Virus record (IMG/VR): IMGVR_UViG_3300023174_000139
Source of the DNA: an uncultured virus (IMG/VR IMGVR_UViG_3300023174_000139)
Taxonomy: Duplodnaviria; Heunggongvirae; Uroviricota; Caudoviricetes
Direction: 5' to 3' (one strand)
DNA length: 64,000 nt
Position 1 is the stretch's first letter. Every line of letters begins with the position of its first letter. Below the pieces are notes generated by a model. That model worked only from the letters and a program-made list of their open reading frames with translations, made no database searches and had not been told where the DNA came from. This document shows, in pieces, positions 9,235-24,586 of this stretch. Both the position numbers and the translations under genes were made by a program.

Positions 9235-9444
9235 ATGGAAATAGTAAAAAATAAAGCTAGATGGTCAGTCTACGCAAGTAAATGTGTTAAATATTACAAT
9301 ATCTCTAATGAGAATATTTATGATAAACCAGAGCAATATCCATGTATTGCTATACCTCAATTGATATCTGATATAAATGGTTCAAGAATTAAGTTTAATT
9401 TTGTTTATAAAAAAGATTGCCAAAGATTATTAAAAGCTTTATAA
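9235..9444 (+). CDS. Hypothetical protein
   Basis: 69-aa ORF, GTGTAT motif upstream. Confidence 0.5.
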   Translation: MEIVKNKARWSVYASKCVKYYNISNENIYDKPEQYPCIAIPQLISDINGSRIKFNFVYKKDCQRLLKAL

Positions 9445-9474
9445 TGTGTAAATATTAATTAGTTCTTTCTTATT

Positions 9475-9860
9475 GGGCCCGTACTGGTTTCGATTTTAAA
9501 GATCGGAATTAGAATGCAAGTGGAGGTTGAATCGAGGACTCCTTAAAAAGTTTCAATTATATTAACTGCCAAAACAGCAAAATATAAAGGTCATATTTCA
9601 GCAAGAGTTTCTCTTGTTGAGACGACCGCTTCTGTAGCCTAAGCTACAGCGTGATATCTACGATACATCTACTAGAATATTGCGTAATTAGATGTTTATT
9701 ATTTAATAGTTTTTCTGTTCTTTAAGTAATAATATTCAAGATAGAATACGCCAAGTATGTTTGTTCTTTATCTATATAAGGCTAAAACCAAAAAGAACTA
9801 AACTTGTAGTATTTTAATTTAAATTTTTAAAAGACAGAGGTTCAATTCCTCTCGGGTCCA
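9475..9860 (+). ncRNA. ssrA: tmRNA; predicted tag (A)AKTAKYKGHISARVSLVETTASVA at 9568-9642
   Basis: 5' GGGCCCG pairs with 3' CGGGTCC-A giving G3.U70 and A73; 5' TGGTTTCGA; T arm GAGG-TTCAATT-CCTC; TAACT-GCC resume context; stop codon in hairpin CTGTAGC-CTAA-GCTACAG. Confidence 0.92.
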
Positions 9861-9928
9861 AGTATATATTATATATTATATATTATATATTTTTATATAT
9901 GGCAGATTTTTTTGTGTAATATAACTAT

Positions 9929-16263: not shown

Positions 16264-16611
16264 ATGCCAGTATATATTTATGAAAATCCTAAGACAAAGG
16301 ATGTCATAGAAATTATTCAATCTGTGAATGATGAACATATTTATATTGATAAAAATGGTTTAAAATGGAATAGAATATTCACTGCGCCTCAAGTTGGTAT
16401 TGATACAAAATTAGATGCCTTTAGTACTTCTAAAGAATTTGCGGAAAAAACTCGTAATAAAAAAGATAATGTTGGTCAATTATGGGATAGAAGTAAAGAA
16501 TTATCCCAAAAAAGAAAAGACAAATTTGGAGAAGATAAATTAAAAACTGCATATCTAGATAAATGGAGTAAAAAAAGAAAGGGGAAGAGGCCACCACCAA
16601 CATTATTATGA
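16264..16611 (+). CDS. FmdB-like putative regulator lacking Zn cysteines
   Basis: MPVYIYENPKT...EIIQS resembles FmdB MPxYxYxC. Confidence 0.45.
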   Translation: MPVYIYENPKTKDVIEIIQSVNDEHIYIDKNGLKWNRIFTAPQVGIDTKLDAFSTSKEFAEKTRNKKDNVGQLWDRSKELSQKRKDKFGEDKLKTAYLDKWSKKRKGKRPPPTLL

Positions 16612-17072
16612 ACGAAGAAAATTCATCAGATCTATTTTTTGTTAAAAAATCAAAATTACATGGCAATGGACTTTTTGCTAAAAAATTTATTAAAAAAGAT
16701 ACAAATCTTTTAGATTTAAAATTTACAGTTCTACCAAAAGATTATGCTGAAAAATGTATAGAAAATAATTTATCATATTCTGAAATTGAAGAACAATTCA
16801 TTAAATATTATAAAGTACTTACTTTCGATAATTATTTAAATAAAATACATTTTAAATGCGCCGATGGATATAGCCATTATATTTATATGATGCTTTTAGG
16901 AGACGCTAGTTTTATAAATAATAGTTTTAGTGATGATGCTCAAAACGTTAAAATTATATACAATTCAGAAGATGAAAAAATATATATGTCTTCTGTAAAA
17001 GACATACAGGCTGGAGAAGAAATTTTAGTAAATTATGGGGATTTTGGAGATTTTAATAAAATAAAAAATTAA
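16608..17072 (+). CDS. SET-domain protein (putative lysine methyltransferase)
   Basis: KSKLHGNGLFA, FINNS (canonical NHS), DIQAGEEILVNYG. Confidence 0.8.
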   Translation: MNEENSSDLFFVKKSKLHGNGLFAKKFIKKDTNLLDLKFTVLPKDYAEKCIENNLSYSEIEEQFIKYYKVLTFDNYLNKIHFKCADGYSHYIYMMLLGDASFINNSFSDDAQNVKIIYNSEDEKIYMSSVKDIQAGEEILVNYGDFGDFNKIKN

Positions 17073-17074
17073 TT

Positions 17075-17404
17075 TTATTTTCTATTTAAATGATTTTGAA
17101 TTATATCAAAATTACGGTCTAATTTAGCTTCTATTCTATCGAAATAAACTTCAAATGACTCTTTAGTAACATAAGTTGTACTAATTTTTAATGCTAAATC
17201 TGATATTTCTTGTTGATGTTTACGTCCTTCTACCTCCATTTCTTTTCTTAAAGTAATAAAATCGCTGAATGTTTTATCATTAATTTCTTTCATTAAAGTC
17301 TCTTGTTTATCAAATAAAGAGAAAACTCTAGTAAATAACCATCCACCTAAGAAGGATAATGCACCTAAAACTAGATTAAAAATCAAAGGAATATCTAAAT
17401 TCAC
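17075..17404 (-). CDS. Single-TM plus coiled-coil protein, holin-like candidate
   Basis: N-terminal TM LIFNLVLGALSFLGGWLF, coiled coil; GTG start 8 nt after GTGTAA. Confidence 0.45.
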   Translation of the reverse strand: MNLDIPLIFNLVLGALSFLGGWLFTRVFSLFDKQETLMKEINDKTFSDFITLRKEMEVEGRKHQQEISDLALKISTTYVTKESFEVYFDRIEAKLDRNFDIIQNHLNRK

Positions 17405-18500: not shown

Positions 18501-20762
18501 TTACAATTTACACGCTCCACTGGAGCAATCTCTATCTTCTTTTTGATTAAGTGACTGTTCTTTATCTCCATCATCAGTATTATTGTAATATAAACTAATT
18601 AATCCAAGACTATAAGCGTACATTACTTCTTTCATAACTTTTGCGTCTGGTAACACATTATTTTCATAGTGACTATAATTATAGTATACATTAGTTGATA
18701 TTGCCATGTCAATATATTTTTGAATAACTGCGTTAATTTTTAATAGACCAGAGTTGTCTTTAAGATCATAAGCTAATTCATAATTATCATCATATTTGCC
18801 AATTCCTGGCACCATGACTGGAAGCTTGCCCATTTTACTAGTTTTATAAGTTATAAGACTTCTGATTGGTTCTACCCCATTTGTTGAACATTGAATTACA
18901 GAACTGCTTTCACAAGGCATACAAGAGGATAATGTTGAATTTCTTAGACCAAATTCTTTAATATCTTTTCTTAGCTTATCCCAATCAAGAGATAATTTTC
19001 TTTTAACTAATTCATCTACCTTATCTTTATAAGTATCAATAGGTAGTATACCTTTAGCATACTTAGTTTTATCAAATTTTTCGCATTTACCTTTTTCTTT
19101 TGCTAACTCAACGCTACTCTTTAAAAGATAATACTGAAAATGTTCCATCCATTCATCAATAACTGATAATGATTTATCAGAAGTATATTTTAATTCATTC
19201 TTCGCTAAAAATGCTGCTAAATTAGTTATTCCAACTCCAAGACTTCTACGTTTTTTTGCAAAATTCTCAGAAGCAATATTAAAATAATCTTGAAGGTCAA
19301 TAATTTCATCAAGAAATCTAACGATAAGATCGCAAGTCTTTTCAAGATCTTGCCAGTTTTTAATTTCTAGCATATTTACTGCTGAAAGAATACACATTCC
19401 AATTTCTGCGTTTTTATCATGATAATCATTTAATGGAATAGTTGGATGAATTACTTCTGTACAAAGATTACTCATAGTAACTTTATCTAACCAAGCGCCA
19501 TGATTATTTGCGTGATCAACATTCAATATATAAATACGGCCAGTTTCTACTCTCTCTTTAATTATAAGAGAAAACAATTTACGTGCAGACACTTTCTTTT
19601 TAAATTTTAATTTTTTAGATTCACACTCTTTATATACTTTATCGAAATCTTTTGTTCCCCATGCTTCGTAAAGTTCTGGTACTTCTGAAGTATTAAATAA
19701 AGTAATGTCTTCATCTTTTAAAACTCTATCATAAAATAATTTACTCATACCAACTGTATAATCAAGCTTACGAACCCTGTTATCATCTGTTCCAGCATTA
19801 TTTTTTAATACAATAATATCTTCAATTTCATAATGCCACCATTGAATATTGCAAGTTGCGCTACCACCTCTTAAGCCATTCTGTTGCCAAGCCTTTACGC
19901 TGCTCTCATAGATTTTTAAAAATGGGATTAAACCAGTATGGACAACCTCACCATTTTTAATTGGTGAACCAATAGCTCTAATTTTACTGACATCAATACC
20001 AATACCACATCTATTAGCGGTAGCCATGCTTACTGCGGTTGCACTAGCTGTAATACTTTCTCTAGTGTCATCTACTCCAATCAAACAGCAACTAGCGTAA
20101 TTTCTACTATTAGTCCTAACGCCAGCCATAACTGGGGTTGGTAGATTTATTTTATGCTTGCTAATTGCATCGTAAAATTTTCTAATATAAGAAAGCCTTG
20201 TATCTACTGGATATTTAGCGAAAGAATAAGCAGCAATTAATATGTATGCAAACTGTGGTGTTTCATAAATTCTTCCATTTACTCTATCCTTAATTAAATA
20301 TTTATCGCAAAGCTGCTTTATGCCAGCGTAAGTAAATATAAAATCTCTATCGTGATCAATGAACTCACCGATTTTATTAATTTCATCTTCTGAATAATAT
20401 TTTAAAATACTATCATCATAAATTTTATTCTTAATGCTTTCTTTTAAGAATTCAGACAATCTTGGTGAATGTTTACCTTTCCATACGTCTTTTCTCAACT
20501 GATAACTTAAAAGTCTAGCTGCTACGAATTGATAATTTGGTTTTTCGATAGAAATTAAATTAGCTGCACTTTCAATTAAAAGATTATGTATCTCTTTACT
20601 CGATACTCCGTCATGAATATTTATTTTTGCATTAATCTCAATATCAGTTAAACTTACTCCAGAGTAACCATCTATTGCCCAGTTGATTACTCGATTGATC
20701 TTCTCTATATCAAATTTTTCTGTAGACCCATTCCGTTTCTTTACATTTATATATTTACTCAT
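18501..20762 (-). CDS. nrdA: Class Ia ribonucleotide reductase alpha subunit with ATP cone
   Basis: VKKRNG ATP cone, PTPVMAG, SCCLI, SNLCTE, C-terminal CSSGACKL; start MSKYINV at 20762. Confidence 0.95.
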   Translation of the reverse strand: MSKYINVKKRNGSTEKFDIEKINRVINWAIDGYSGVSLTDIEINAKINIHDGVSSKEIHNLLIESAANLISIEKPNYQFVAARLLSYQLRKDVWKGKHSPRLSEFLKESIKNKIYDDSILKYYSEDEINKIGEFIDHDRDFIFTYAGIKQLCDKYLIKDRVNGRIYETPQFAYILIAAYSFAKYPVDTRLSYIRKFYDAISKHKINLPTPVMAGVRTNSRNYASCCLIGVDDTRESITASATAVSMATANRCGIGIDVSKIRAIGSPIKNGEVVHTGLIPFLKIYESSVKAWQQNGLRGGSATCNIQWWHYEIEDIIVLKNNAGTDDNRVRKLDYTVGMSKLFYDRVLKDEDITLFNTSEVPELYEAWGTKDFDKVYKECESKKLKFKKKVSARKLFSLIIKERVETGRIYILNVDHANNHGAWLDKVTMSNLCTEVIHPTIPLNDYHDKNAEIGMCILSAVNMLEIKNWQDLEKTCDLIVRFLDEIIDLQDYFNIASENFAKKRRSLGVGITNLAAFLAKNELKYTSDKSLSVIDEWMEHFQYYLLKSSVELAKEKGKCEKFDKTKYAKGILPIDTYKDKVDELVKRKLSLDWDKLRKDIKEFGLRNSTLSSCMPCESSSVIQCSTNGVEPIRSLITYKTSKMGKLPVMVPGIGKYDDNYELAYDLKDNSGLLKINAVIQKYIDMAISTNVYYNYSHYENNVLPDAKVMKEVMYAYSLGLISLYYNNTDDGDKEQSLNQKEDRDCSSGACKL

Positions 20763-20883
20763 ACTTACTGTGAATATAAGTTTACAGTATTTTTTAAATT
20801 TATAAAAGAAAATTTTTGTTGTTGTTAACAATACATTGAACTTACTTTAGATATGTGTACAGAATCTCTAATCTCTTATTAAT

Positions 20884-21143
20884 TATTTTCCCAATGAGCT
20901 CTTGCAAAGCGAAGCTTTCCCTGTATTAGAGGGGCATTTCGAGCTAACTGATCCATTTTCCCAATTGAGTCTATAAGCCTTTCGGCTCGCCTAACACTTA
21001 TCGGATGTCGGTAGGATCATCCATCGCGTGTTAGCCCTTGCACCTACGCTCCCTTAATTTCTTAAGGTTTCTCGGGTCGCAAGCTTCGTTAGCGTTGCCC
21101 GACGTTTCGGATCAATTCAAACTCACTATTTTTAGAAAATAGC
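20884..21143 (-). ncRNA. Unidentified highly structured RNA upstream of nrdA
   Basis: About 48% GC (my count, 20941-21120) in an AT-rich genome, no ORF, at least 7 helices, two GAAA-capped hairpins, three pseudoknot-type pairings, promoter upstream. Confidence 0.7.
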
Positions 21144-21165
21144 AAAACTTTGTATTATTTTACTA

Positions 21166-21208
21166 ATACTATATATTGTATAGTACCTATTATTTTTTTG
21201 TTTGTCAA
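21166..21208 (-). promoter_or_regulatory. Sigma70 promoter TTGACA-N17-TACTAT with overlapping NrdR-box-like palindrome
   Basis: -35 at 21208-21203, -10 at 21185-21180; ATACTATATATTGTAT (21166-21181) matches acaCwAtATaTwGtgt at 14/16. Confidence 0.55.
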
Positions 21209-21235
21209 TTTTATTTTTCATGTTATAATTATTAA

Positions 21236-21997
21236 ATGTTTAGTATATATAGTTCTGCTTTTAATCTTATCAAGAATAATTTCAATTATATTGAATCTAT
21301 TAATAATTTTTGCGGTTTTGCAGATGAAGTAGTTATAGCAGTAAACAAATCAGAGGATAATACGCTTGAAGTATTGAAATCATTGAATTTCAATAATTTA
21401 AAATTAATTGAAACAAACTTCTCTTATAAAGACCCATTATTAGATGGTAAAATTAAAAATGAAGCACTGCAAGCAACTAAAGAAGAATTTAAAATTGGAT
21501 TAGACATGGATGAATATATCCCATTATGGCAAAAAGATATTTGGACTAATTTAGCATATCAATTAAGATTTGATCTTTATGATTGCTATATGATACCTTC
21601 AATTAATCTTTATGAAAATAAAGATCATTATTTTTCAATCGGTCATAAATGGTACTTACATAAAGGCAATCTTTTTAGAGGAGCAGTTAATTTTGCTAAA
21701 AATCAAAATGGAACAGTAGACACATCAAGAAGCGATACCTGTGAATTGATAGATTCAAATGGGAATTTAGTATCATCTAAAATGTTTGACAATGATATTA
21801 ATTCATTAAGATCTAAAATAGTTCCATTTGTAGTCCATAATGGATATTTAAATTTACAAGATAGAGTCTTAAGGAATAAAAATTTTTGGAAAGAGCATTG
21901 GAAAATTGAATCTGGCGGAATTGAACCAACTCATAAAGTACATGAATCTTTAGAAGATTTCTCAGAAAGATATTATAAACACGATTTAGATATATGA
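21236..21997 (+). CDS. Glycosyltransferase, GT-A (GT2-like)
   Basis: ADEVVIAV..SEDNT, LDMDE. Confidence 0.75.
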   Translation: MFSIYSSAFNLIKNNFNYIESINNFCGFADEVVIAVNKSEDNTLEVLKSLNFNNLKLIETNFSYKDPLLDGKIKNEALQATKEEFKIGLDMDEYIPLWQKDIWTNLAYQLRFDLYDCYMIPSINLYENKDHYFSIGHKWYLHKGNLFRGAVNFAKNQNGTVDTSRSDTCELIDSNGNLVSSKMFDNDINSLRSKIVPFVVHNGYLNLQDRVLRNKNFWKEHWKIESGGIEPTHKVHESLEDFSERYYKHDLDI

Positions 21998-23010
21998 AGA
22001 TTGCCTTGATAGCAAATGATTATGTTCAACAATTCCCATTAGAAAATTACGGAGGAATTGAAACTTGCGTTGAAAATCTAGCTCAAGGTTTATTTGACAA
22101 TAAGGTTGATTTCTTTGTTGTTTGTCCAAAGAGAAAAAATAAAAAAGAATATCCTTTTGAAATTTATGAAACAGAAGAAGAACCAACATCGTTAAGCAAT
22201 AAGAATAGTTCATATTATGCCTATTCTGTAGCCAAAGTTTTAAAAAATTTAAAATTTGACATTATTTGGAGTCAAAGCAATTGGAGTATAGATCCTCTTT
22301 TATGTTTTAAAAAACCAATTATCTGTACATTTCAAGATAGTTGCGAAAAACAACATGGATGGATGAAAGATTTGGACAAAGTAAAATACAGATTCATTTC
22401 TAATTTTCAGCACAATAATTGGGTTAAGGAAGATTGGGAAAAAGAAAAAAGCTTTATGTGTTATACTGGTTTAACAGACTCTGAATTTAAACTCAATGAA
22501 TCAAAAAAAGATTATTTTTTATGGTGTGCAGGATTAAATTGGGGACTTAACGCAAAAGGATTAGATGTTTTTATAAAATTATCAGAAATTTATAAAGATA
22601 AAAATTTTATTGCATATGGCGCAGGTAATAAAGAATTAGAAGAATATCTTTTAAATAAAACTAAAAATAATTCTAATTTTATATATAAAGGTAAATTAAA
22701 TAGAGGCCACGAGCATGACGATGCCTTTTCTAATGCAAAAGCTTTTTTCATGCCTACAAGACTTCCAGAGGCTTTAGGAAGAACAATTATAGAAAGTTTT
22801 TCAAAAGGAACACCAGTATATGGTTCAGGCAATGGATCACTAAATGAATTAATTGAAAATAAGATAAATGGTTTCAAATTTTCGTTAGAAACACTTGATT
22901 TAGATTTAGATTTTCAATTTAATTATAAAAATATTTTTGAACATTCAAAAAAATTTAATATTTTAGAAGAAATTAATAAACTTTCAAAAGAAAGCCTCAA
23001 ACTGCTATGA
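21994..23010 (+). CDS. Glycosyltransferase GT4
   Basis: MKIALIA...YGGIE, KGLD, EALGRTIIESFSKGTPV. Confidence 0.85.
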   Translation: MKIALIANDYVQQFPLENYGGIETCVENLAQGLFDNKVDFFVVCPKRKNKKEYPFEIYETEEEPTSLSNKNSSYYAYSVAKVLKNLKFDIIWSQSNWSIDPLLCFKKPIICTFQDSCEKQHGWMKDLDKVKYRFISNFQHNNWVKEDWEKEKSFMCYTGLTDSEFKLNESKKDYFLWCAGLNWGLNAKGLDVFIKLSEIYKDKNFIAYGAGNKELEEYLLNKTKNNSNFIYKGKLNRGHEHDDAFSNAKAFFMPTRLPEALGRTIIESFSKGTPVYGSGNGSLNELIENKINGFKFSLETLDLDLDFQFNYKNIFEHSKKFNILEEINKLSKESLKLL

Positions 23011-23753
23011 AAATTGGAATCATATTTGCAGGTTTTAATAATTTTAAATATGCATCAACAAGCATAATACCATGGATTTTATATAAAAAAATGTATTCAA
23101 ACAATATTTTTATAGCTGCCGTTTCAGTTCCATTTAAGGAGTATGAAGATAAAGATATCAAAGAAGATGCGACTACAGAATATTTAATTAATTTAGCAAA
23201 TGAAAATTTTATAGATATATGCTTTAATCAACCTAAATTTATAAAAGAAAATGAAGCAAGAAATATGCCCTTATTTTATCTTCTTGATAAAAATGTAGAT
23301 TATATAATGATTGTAGATTCAGACGAACTCTATTCATTAGAAGACATAGCAAGGATAATTCAATACATATCTGAAAATGATTTAGAGGCATTTAAAATTA
23401 ATTTTAAAAACTATATATTAGACGGAAAAACATATTTAGATGGATTTTGCCCATTTAGAATATTTAAAACAAAAATTCATGATGGTATAGATTCATTTTA
23501 TTGGGATAACGATATTAAATATAGAAATGGAAAAACTAATAATCAACTAATATATGCAGATATACCAAAAGAAGTAGCATATATAAAACATATGACATGG
23601 CTAAATGAAAATGGCAAAGAAAAGGTTGAGTATCATCTTAAGCATTTTGGAGCATGTTCATACAAGTGGAACCAAGATAAAATGGAATTAGAGATAGATT
23701 GGGAATATTATGATAGGATGGGATATTCAAGACCGATTTTAAATAAAGAATAA
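23007..23753 (+). CDS. Glycosyltransferase, GT-A (GT2-like)
   Basis: ARN...DYIMIVDSDE. Confidence 0.7.
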   Translation: MKIGIIFAGFNNFKYASTSIIPWILYKKMYSNNIFIAAVSVPFKEYEDKDIKEDATTEYLINLANENFIDICFNQPKFIKENEARNMPLFYLLDKNVDYIMIVDSDELYSLEDIARIIQYISENDLEAFKINFKNYILDGKTYLDGFCPFRIFKTKIHDGIDSFYWDNDIKYRNGKTNNQLIYADIPKEVAYIKHMTWLNENGKEKVEYHLKHFGACSYKWNQDKMELEIDWEYYDRMGYSRPILNKE

Positions 23754-23758
23754 TTAAT

Positions 23759-24586
23759 ATGTTAATTGGCAATGTTTATTATAATAGAATAAATACGGAA
23801 AATCATACCAACTGGTGGGAATGGGATTTTTATTCAGAAGTAGCAAAAATAATATCAGAAGATAAATTAGTTAAAAAATATAATTTTAGAGTATATTTAA
23901 CTGATCCATACAAAGTAAATCCACAAAAAGATGATATTGTAATATTTACATCATTTGAAACATACGATATCCCAGATTTTATAAATATTCCTTTTTTAAC
24001 ATTCAAGCAGTATGTTAAGGAAAATATACCAAATAAATTATATGGATTGCCATTAGGATTAAATTATCCAATTATACATACGCCAAATTTACTAATAAGC
24101 GAGCGTAAGATTGATTTATGTTTTTTAGGTCAGTATGAAAATAGATATAATAGAAAACACATCATAGACTTTATAAAAAATAAATTTTCAGATCGTAATA
24201 TAGTAATAGGTTCAGATAAATCAGTAATAGAATATTATTTAACTTTATCAAATTCAAAAATATCTTTATGTTTAGATGGAGGGATGGTTCCAGAAGCTTA
24301 TAGATTTTTTGAAGCATTAAAATATGGGTGTGTCACAATAGCTAATGAATTTTTATTAAATTTAGATATTTATAAAAATGCACCATTTATTCCTATTAAT
24401 TGGAATAATTTAGATGCACTTGAGAATAAAATTAATTTCTTATTAAATAACGTATCTAGTTTAGATGATAGTTCTCATATAAATAATACATTTTGGCAAA
24501 ATAATTATAGTCAAAAAGCTCAAGCTAATTTTATTATAGATAAAATACATAAAAAAATATATAATTCAATTAAACAAAAGGAGTAA
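23759..24586 (+). CDS. Exostosin/GT47-like glycosyltransferase
   Basis: RKIDLCFLG, SKISLCLDG...YRFFEALKYGC. Confidence 0.65.
   Translation: MLIGNVYYNRINTENHTNWWEWDFYSEVAKIISEDKLVKKYNFRVYLTDPYKVNPQKDDIVIFTSFETYDIPDFINIPFLTFKQYVKENIPNKLYGLPLGLNYPIIHTPNLLISERKIDLCFLGQYENRYNRKHIIDFIKNKFSDRNIVIGSDKSVIEYYLTLSNSKISLCLDGGMVPEAYRFFEALKYGCVTIANEFLLNLDIYKNAPFIPINWNNLDALENKINFLLNNVSSLDDSSHINNTFWQNNYSQKAQANFIIDKIHKKIYNSIKQKE

Follow-up and report, generated by a model that had tools for sequence, protein, structure and literature searches.

GOLLD and ROOL are large ornate RNAs that, according to a 224-motif survey (PMC5737381), often occur in phages or prophages near tRNA genes, and a cryo-electron microscopy study reports both as RNA-only homo-oligomers (PMC12286853). 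A glutamine riboswitch, the glnA RNA motif, lies beside the transfer-messenger RNA (tmRNA) gene of the marine phages Melnitz and Mosig, as stated in PMC9004378. PMC10690425 presents 8,495 candidate structured RNAs (csRNAs) of 29-151 nucleotides (nt) from the IMG/VR catalogue, and the table of motifs lying at most 25 bp upstream of genes names, for ribonucleotide reductase (RNR), small-subunit genes only. Here we describe an RNA of about 290 nt predicted on the minus strand of a 64,000-nt stretch of DNA from an uncultured virus of the Caudoviricetes (IMG/VR record IMGVR_UViG_3300023174_000139; this whole stretch is called the window below), where it lies upstream of the phage RNR gene nrdA. On balance, we consider it probable that a compact non-coding RNA (ncRNA) is encoded here by a free-standing gene under its own promoter, in a clade of uncultured freshwater myophage-like phages, and that the two matching single-stranded arms of this RNA would face one external partner.

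As far as its sequence and relatives tell, this RNA is like GOLLD and ROOL in being a promoter-driven, highly structured and pseudoknotted phage ncRNA that is not bound to one neighbour gene, and in standing beside an RNA gene (tmRNA) in 36 of the 43 loci of one of its subtypes, G4. However, it matches neither in sequence or structure and is two to three times smaller. Twin co-evolving single-stranded arms, such as those reported below, have to our knowledge not been described for GOLLD or ROOL. The parallel with the glnA motif is positional only: both are structured RNAs next to a phage tmRNA gene in related myophages of streamlined hosts, but the present RNA matched neither the glnA nor the Downstream-peptide model, is five times larger, and is oriented away from the tmRNA unit behind a promoter-like site of its own. 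Our work shares its data source (IMG/VR intergenic regions) and its method (covariation) with PMC10690425, whose catalogue holds no model longer than 151 nt; single hairpins of the RNA may be part of it. Full-text literature searches found no description of this RNA, and the consulted part of PMC5737381 mentions neither nrd nor lake phages.

Homologues were collected from 80 nrdA loci, the best 80 of 194 relatives (NrdA 77-99% identical), and by two degenerate pattern scans. An exact 28-base core of the RNA was found in 12 IMG/VR contigs, upstream of nrdA in each. The collection comprises 67 distinct RNA sequences, all from contigs of uncultured lake phages, in four subtypes: G1, to which the window belongs (26 sequences, alignment A2), G2 (5), L069 (1) and G4 (35 distinct sequences out of 43 loci, alignment A4). 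A covariance model, R1, built from the G1 sequences alone, matched the window at 20881-21181 with 301 bits and recovered G2, L069 and G4 over its own full length (model positions 1-298) with expectation values (E) of 1e-12 to 1e-17. Thus, the four subtypes represent one family, with lengths of about 290-325 nt. The metagenome pattern scan yielded eight true members among 80 fetched loci, the others being chance matches, and at most one RNA was present per contig examined.

Some of the negative searches have to be read with care. A profile search of three records (G002, G004 and G008) with the RNA model reported no match, whereas the pattern scan and cmsearch located the RNA on these very contigs (L302, L279 and L277); the prefiltered profile search therefore misses matches of about 50 bits and its negatives are weak. 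GenBank phage records gave no blastn match with G1, G2 or G4 queries and no megablast match with 8 kb. By NrdA, the nearest isolates are marine Pelagibacter myophages (51-53% identity). Mosig and HTVC008M have no RNA beside nrdA, the primase gene being directly upstream there, and the model search, whose prefilter can miss matches, found none in their whole records. A cellular homologue was also sought: the pattern scan of species-representative genomes gave eight matches, none with the fold (the model scored nothing in L132, L137, L138 and L139, and the other four were judged by eye). With strict filters, the model had no match in 101 genomes of one bacterial family and two metagenome-assembled genomes (MAGs). 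Separately, one contig (L306, positions 242-444, IMGVR_UViG_3300022752_000146) carries four tandem matches to the G4-core pattern, about 42-50 bases apart, which the RNA model misses and which we thus take for a short repeat array.

By searching the whole window with Rfam 15 (4227 models, including cobalamin, purine/2'-deoxyguanosine (2'-dG), glnA, raiA, GOLLD, ROOL and HEARO, as well as RNase P, tmRNA, group I/II introns and self-cleaving ribozymes), we obtained four matches at gathering threshold, none of them in the RNA region. At E up to 10, that region matched symR alone, with 15.9 bits vs the 61 needed. Loci of G1, G2 and L069, searched with E allowed to rise to 5, gave no match within the RNA; at the G4 loci, the neighbouring tmRNA was the sole match. 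A preliminary description of the locus, made from the letters of the window, had seen no likeness to tRNA, tmRNA, RNase P or a cobalamin riboswitch, and the Rfam check extends this to all subtypes. By this comparison the predicted RNA is a new family, outside the catalogued ones.

The RNA stands out in base composition: GC content is 0.485 at 20900-21099 and 0.20-0.30 in the flanks of this AT-rich window, and the minus strand has no open reading frame (ORF) of at least 40 amino acids (aa) from the nrdA start codon to position 21235, in line with the GC-rich, ORF-free island that had been noticed at first. Folding energy was modest on the minus strand (z-score -2.63; 2 of 200 shuffles as good) and not better than shuffles on the plus strand (z-score -1.43). 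Folding energy alone thus gave little support for a structured RNA.

Covariation gave far more. We drew a structure of 69 pairs by hand on A2: 91.4% of its cells are paired and 24 pairs show double changes. None of 500 column shuffles reached the observed percentage paired, the covariation score or the number of double-changed cells, and a single one reached 24 pairs. When the 3' partners were slid by 1-3 columns, pairing went down to 31-50%. The equivalent 75 pairs in A4 are 97.2% paired, with 15 double-changed pairs (0/500 shuffles as good). The check for covariation among homologues that the preliminary description had called for revealed compensatory changes across the 67 distinct sequences. 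In the predicted anatomy (coordinates in Table 1), two hairpins (P0 and P1) would be followed by a closed P2/P3 domain holding P4, P5, P6/P7 and P8; a pseudoknot of 8 bp (PK1) would link the P4 loop with a 3' domain containing P9, and the strand between P5 and P6 would pair with the P7 loop (PK2).

The coordinates first given for these helices all agree with the window sequence, and the helices themselves recur among the homologues. P2 to P8 and PK1 are each 94-100% paired in A2. First, the domain-closing helices are fully paired in all 26 G1 sequences: P2 contains a pair (73:260) that is AU in 14 and GC in 12, and P3 has double changes in 5 of 7 pairs and an equivalent, UAUCAAUCC/GGAUUGAUA, in G4. 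Second, the hairpins inside the domain covary while keeping their form. P4 is 100% paired in G1, in the versions CGGG/CCCG, CAGG/CCUG and UGGG/CCCA, with AUGG/CCAU in G2 and AUAG/CUAU in G4; P5 is 98% paired, with double changes in 4 of 6 pairs and its GNRA loop kept as GAAA, GCAA or GUAA. P6 is 100% paired with two double-changed pairs and P7 94% with two (UA to CG, and GC to AU in eight sequences); P8 is 98% paired in G1, reaches 9 bp in G4 with double changes in six pairs, and its GNRA loop is GCAA in L069. Third, indels throw P0, P1 and P9 out of register in A2, which lowers their paired share, yet every subtype has a hairpin, of differing sequence, at each of the three places. In the poorly aligned P0, which ends in a GNRA loop in some variants, G4 is 100% paired with one double change. 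P1 varies in G1 between GCUAU/AUAGU, GUCGU/ACGAU and GCCAU/AUGGU (two double-changed pairs; 78.5% paired owing to indels) and is GUUGAU/AUCAAC in G4 (99.5% paired), where P9 is CUUCAGAU/AUCUGGAG and 95-99% paired. Taken together, a predicted fold of eight covarying nested helices and two pseudoknots is well supported by 67 distinct homologues.

The cross-pairings proposed at first fared unequally. PK1 is 97.6% paired with three double-changed pairs in G1, and ten complementary versions of 6-10 bp exist across the subtypes, among them CGAAGCUU/AAGCUUCG, CAGAGCUU/AAGCUCUG, AUAGGCU/AGCCUAU, AAGGGCU/AGCCCUU and CGCAAGCUUU/AAAGCUUGCG; covariation is blind to whether it forms within one molecule or between molecules. 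PK2 is invariant within G1, with a G-U in four sequences, and gains its support across subtypes, where GUAGG/CCUAC becomes GUAGU/ACUAC in L069 and GUAGC/GCUAC in G4, so that its fifth pair is G-C, U-A or C-G, respectively; three of the five G2 sequences have an A-A mismatch there (CCAAC). A third cross-pairing, UGCAAGG with CUUUGCA, showed no double change, was equalled by 331 of 500 shuffles, and its sequence is absent in G2 and G4. Similarly, among the three alternative partners suggested for the 5' UGAGUU(U), only the P2 strand AGCUC at 20945-20941 tracks the G/A change, the two others breaking in 14 of the 26 G1 sequences. The motif CUCA(A)UUGGGAAAAU does occur twice, at 20969-20955 and at 20898-20885, but covariation gives no support to the idea that this repeat and the three UGAGUUU partners make the RNA switch.

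The repeat corresponds to two purine-rich single strands, arm A and arm B, that lie outside every supported helix and evolve together. By comparing UCA and the next 7-10 letters, we found the arms identical to each other in 65 of the 67 distinct sequences, in ten shared states, and one letter apart in the other two. The consensus is UCA(A)UUGGGAAR in G1, UCA(A)GGGAAAAAG in L069 and UCAAA(A)GAAAAG in G2 and G4. Rare changes occur in both arms at once (UUGGG to CUGGG in L122, GGG to GGA in L102, UCA to UUA in L275), and the letter following GGGAA is A, G or U but the same in both. Independent drift would not keep two strands of 10-14 nt alike. Within the RNA, we found no strand or column complementary to the arms in all subtypes. 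By eye, the arms can pair with the 3' strand of P4 or with the TTTTCTTT tract upstream of nrdA in some subtypes only, and we rejected these pairings. The palindromes AAGCUU and GAGCUC, considered as dimer contacts, change between variants (GAACUC, GAUCUC) and were rejected as well. Most simply, the two arms would recognise one and the same partner outside the RNA.

Protein sponges such as CsrB and RsmZ, and phage-borne anti-sRNA decoys such as AgvB, carry repeated identical sites for one partner. The present RNA is comparable in bearing two copies of one short single-stranded motif on a structured body, and the need for the copies to stay alike fits a single partner. Unlike these RNAs, however, it has two sites only, and they stand outside hairpin loops. 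As to CsrA sites, GGA begins most arms, but the arms of G2 and G4 (AAAGAAAAG) are, by inspection, unlike them.

Then, we compared the genomic contexts. In the window, the stretch bearing the RNA is flanked on one side by nrdA, whose ATG lies at 20762 on the minus strand and whose product has an ATP-cone, an all-alpha and a barrel domain, with nrdB following at 18497-17433; on the other side stands a glycosyltransferase-like ORF in divergent orientation (21236-21997, plus strand). The RNA is found within 1.5 kb upstream of nrdA in 28 of the 80 nrdA loci, in the three diverged subtypes G1, G2 and L069. Matching of contig names showed a G4 copy at another place in 26 of the remaining 52 nrdA contigs, and both kinds together in none. 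At the 43 G4 loci, the RNA is not beside nrdA but is transcribed away from a 69-codon ORF, beyond which, about 290 nt from the RNA, the phage tmRNA gene was detected in 36. On the downstream side, 36 of the 43 have a convergent ORF ending 10-25 nt past the RNA, six have unrelated co-directional ORFs (216-328 aa) and one has none. The commonest convergent ORF, found in 25 of the 43 loci, has 171 codons and is intact in 16 distinct sequences with 75, 33 and 142 variable columns by codon position, a pattern that marks it as a selected gene. One sister record (G007) has the order nrdA, nrdB, a 112-aa ORF (a homologue of the window ORF 17404-17075) and the 171-aa ORF, followed by the RNA on the opposite strand, in convergent orientation. 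Moreover, a single G1 contig has a gene for a GT25 glycosyltransferase beginning about 45 nt past the RNA, which is thereby separated from nrdA. A full-length RNA is thus found before nrdA, before the GT25 gene, before unrelated ORFs and facing convergent ORFs.

Between the RNA and the nrdA start codon lie a poorly conserved AU-rich spacer of about 120 nt and a promoter-like nrdA-proximal region that is not part of the RNA. Of the 80 nrdA loci, about 70 keep the latter, whether they carry the RNA or not, so nrdA brings its own control region; its pattern occurs once in the window (20811-20782). In layout it resembles an extended -10 promoter with an operator for a dimeric regulator, both predicted.

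A sigma-70-type promoter-like site is found directly upstream of the RNA. It reads TTGACA-17-TACTAT in the window (10/12 in the consensus scan), and TTGACA-17-TAnnAT stands at the same place in G1, G2, L069 and G4 whatever the flanking genes, a promoter call that comes from the match to the consensus rather than from a mapped start. We infer from the -10 box the position of the RNA 5' end, and the promoter is probably used. The RNA is independent of its neighbouring genes and has its own conserved promoter-like site. The differing contexts and the conserved nrdA region together show a separable module, promoter plus RNA, residing at one of two genome sites. Thus, a stand-alone phage ncRNA, one of several options that had been listed, fits both the conserved promoter-like site and the varied contexts, and we regard a stand-alone RNA gene, as opposed to an nrd control element, as very likely. 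On the other strand, a TTGTCA-16-TATAAT site with TG (21202-21229, plus strand; 11/12) has its -35 region in common with the RNA promoter, and this back-to-back pair is predicted to serve the RNA and the plus-strand glycosyltransferase-like ORF.

Table 1. Positions in the window of the predicted RNA, its structural parts and the adjacent control regions.
Feature	Position	Strand	Partner or basis
Promoter-like site, TTGACA (21208-21203), 17-nt spacer, TACTAT (21185-21180)	21180..21208	-	consensus scan, sigma-70-type
ncRNA, ~290 nt	20881..21173	-	R1 match and conservation boundaries
P0, 5'-terminal hairpin GUAUUA-GUAAAA-UAAUAC	21152..21169	-	hairpin at the same place in every subtype
P1 hairpin GCUAU...AUAGU	21125..21143	-	versions across G1
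P2, 5' strand GAGUU	21120..21124	-	partner 20945-20941
P3, 5' strand AAUUGAUCC	21109..21117	-	partner 20954-20946
P4 hairpin UCGGG (21102-21098)/CCCGA (21076-21072)	21072..21102	-	loop carries PK1 5' strand
PK1, 5' strand CGAAGCUU in P4 loop	21088-21081	-	partner 20917-20910
P5 hairpin CCUUAA-GAAA-UUAAGG, GNRA tetraloop	21052..21067	-	covariation
PK2, 5' strand GUAGG	21043..21047	-	pairs with P7 loop CCUAC (21015-21011)
P6 CUAACAC (21034-28)/GUGUUAG (20997-91), enclosing P7	20991..21034	-	covariation
P7 GGAUG (21022-18)/CAUCC (21007-03), loop holding CCUAC (21015-11)	inside P6	-	covariation
P8 hairpin GAGCC-GAAA-GGCUU, GAAA tetraloop	20975..20988	-	covariation
Arm A, single-stranded CUCAAUUGGGAAAAU	20955..20969	-	between P8 and P3 3' strand
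P3, 3' strand GGAUCAGUU	20946..20954	-	partner 21117-21109
P2, 3' strand AGCUC	20941..20945	-	partner 21120-21124
P9 hairpin CCCU/AGGG, longer in other variants	20919..20933	-	80% paired in gappy A2 stretch
PK1, 3' strand AAGCUUCG	20910..20917	-	partner 21088-21081
Arm B, 3'-terminal single-stranded CUCAUUGGGAAAAU	20885..20898	-	ends the RNA
nrdA-proximal region, not part of the RNA	20763..20860	-	GTACAC, GTTA-N-TAAC palindrome, TTTTCTTT, TGTAAnnT; nrdA start 20762

How the RNA might work can be sketched from the arms. It would act in trans: held out by the knotted core as by a rigid scaffold, two recognition arms of the same sequence would bind a single kind of external partner, either in two copies or at two of its sites. 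Such a twin-arm, partner-binding mechanism is put forward tentatively, at somewhat less than even chances. The concerted change of the arms, letter by letter, speaks for base pairing with a nucleic acid; the alternative would be a dimeric protein. More specifically, the arms could be guide-like, programmable strands pairing with two copies of one host or phage nucleic-acid target, or, as a variant, serve the contacts of an RNA-only homo-oligomer like those of ROOL and GOLLD. Guide-like pairing with one target would explain the mirrored substitutions, but we consider this more specific proposal unlikely.

Several points weigh against a free-standing RNA with arms directed at one partner. First, the window and two 130-kb sister contigs have no excess of arm-complementary sites: the two sites with one mismatch in the window (3823 and 4521) are antisense to the genes there, two exact sites in the sister contigs are not homologous, and the counts in G003, G006 and G007 are not above the reversed-pattern control. 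No arm-complementary site was found in the phage tmRNA either. The arms could instead engage in tertiary contacts, either inside one RNA or from one copy to another. Second, G1, G2 and L069 keep the RNA at the same place and on the same strand before nrdA, which could mean co-transcription, an argument tempered by the close kinship of the phages with a nrdA-side RNA (NrdA 87-99% identical). Third, no intrinsic terminator follows the RNA, so we deduce its 3' end only from the stop in conservation just past arm B. Fourth, transcription rests on a single lake-water metatranscriptome contig of low depth (2.3), possibly DNA carry-over, with strand and ends not shown. This contig, 239 nt long with 13 differences, covers 20897-21132 only, with nothing on either side, and is thus weakly compatible with a discrete, comparatively abundant RNA; three other metatranscriptome runs gave nothing on the RNA, which is not evidence of absence. 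Finally, the contigs are incomplete (13-87% by CheckV), and one copy per genome is therefore not proven.

We weighed four other explanations against a free-standing, trans-acting RNA. The one that survives best is a gene-independent cis element that alters the transcription complex or its transcript, as a processive antiterminator or a 5' stabiliser. Processive antitermination RNAs are known from phage HK022 (put) and Bacillus (EAR). In its favour, a strong promoter-like site always immediately precedes the RNA, no terminator comes afterwards, and the genes downstream are co-directional at the G1, G2 and L069 loci, at 6 of the 43 G4 loci and on the GT25 contig; such an element would also tolerate that these genes differ. 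However, at 36 of the 43 G4 loci the next gene is convergent, so that read-through would yield only antisense transcript; the known antitermination RNAs are much smaller and less elaborate; and concerted evolution of the arms would have no role. Thus, a cis element appears improbable.

A ribozyme, self-cleaving or other, in which the double-pseudoknot core would form the catalytic fold, is less probable still, with only a slim chance by our reckoning. The compact, pseudoknotted, conserved core and its long invariant joining strands (GGCAACG, GUAGGUGNAAGG) would suit one, and the GNRA loops suggest tertiary docking. But no Rfam 15 ribozyme model matched (hammerhead, twister, pistol, hatchet, HDV-like, glmS, RNase P, group I/II), we recognised no conserved cleavage-site signature, and the context offers no substrate.

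An RNA in the leader of the nrdAB operon, as the preliminary description was entitled, would sense a nucleotide or a cofactor and control read-through into nrdA. This attractive explanation draws on the fact that the RNA precedes nrdA and shares its strand at 28 of 80 loci and in three diverged subtypes, on the lack of a terminator between the two, and on a size and pseudoknots like those of large aptamers. It does not sit well with the contexts described above: the RNA is away from nrdA at the 43 G4 loci, is downstream of and convergent with the nrdAB-orf112-orf171 block in G007, and is cut off from nrdA by the GT25 gene in one contig. Where the two are neighbours, the spacer and the nrdA promoter-like region, which RNA-less loci have too, stand between them. 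Furthermore, no expression platform was found at 20600-21400, that is, neither a terminator (0 terminator-like sites) nor an element masking the start site; the pairings proposed for switching do not covary; and no cobalamin, purine/2'-dG or other Rfam 15 riboswitch model matched. We therefore abandon the leader as an explanation, granting it even less credence than a ribozyme. RNase P RNA is defined by conserved regions CR-I to CR-V and a P4 helix in canonical order, and a strongly diverged housekeeping RNA (RNase P RNA, 6S or signal recognition particle (SRP) RNA), carried in the manner of phage tRNAs and tmRNA, is hardly credible: the G4 copy does lie in an RNA-gene corner of the genome beside tmRNA, and strand ACAGGGAAAGCU with a long-range helix is loosely reminiscent of the RNase P P4 region, but short stretches searched with E allowed up to 10 gave no match to an RNaseP, 6S or SRP model, the helix order (P2-P3-P4-P5-P6/7-P8 plus a 3' domain) fits none of them and is unlike RNase P, and the RNA model had no match in the 101 bacterial genomes and two MAGs.

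The surroundings of the two genome sites yielded some further observations. Beyond the RNA lies a variable cluster of glycosyltransferase-like genes, at 21236-24586 on the plus strand of the window and upstream of nrdA in loci L013-L092; its members are GT1, GT2, GT4, GT25 and polysialyltransferase-like, and their content varies among close relatives, as in a hypervariable island. On the other side, convergent to the nrdAB block, the plus strand at 16608-17072 carries a gene for a protein of 154 aa with a SET domain (E 2e-12), and a small phrog_462 'lipoprotein'-like gene lies downstream of nrdB in both genome arrangements (17075-17404, minus strand, in the window; 622-960 in L264). The window also carries, at 9235-9861 on the plus strand, the same pair of 69-codon ORF and tmRNA, with protein genes where G4 has the RNA. 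This 69-codon ORF has no Pfam or PHROGs match and directly precedes a one-piece phage tmRNA with the tag AKTAKYKGHISARVSLVETTASVA.

What this RNA adds is a well-supported, fairly large fold to the few ornate phage RNAs whose job is unassigned, and its source is an abundant group of freshwater relatives of phages that infect streamlined plankton bacteria. It also corrects the attractive reading as an RNR leader: at these loci, there is no evidence for RNA-based sensing before phage RNR genes. The concerted change of the two arms is an 'identity covariation', which is outside what standard covariation tools seek, and its ten states offer a handle on the partner, namely a sequence that changes in step with them. 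If true, guide-like arms would constitute a new class of phage RNA effector, a twin-guide decoy, clamp or recruiter.

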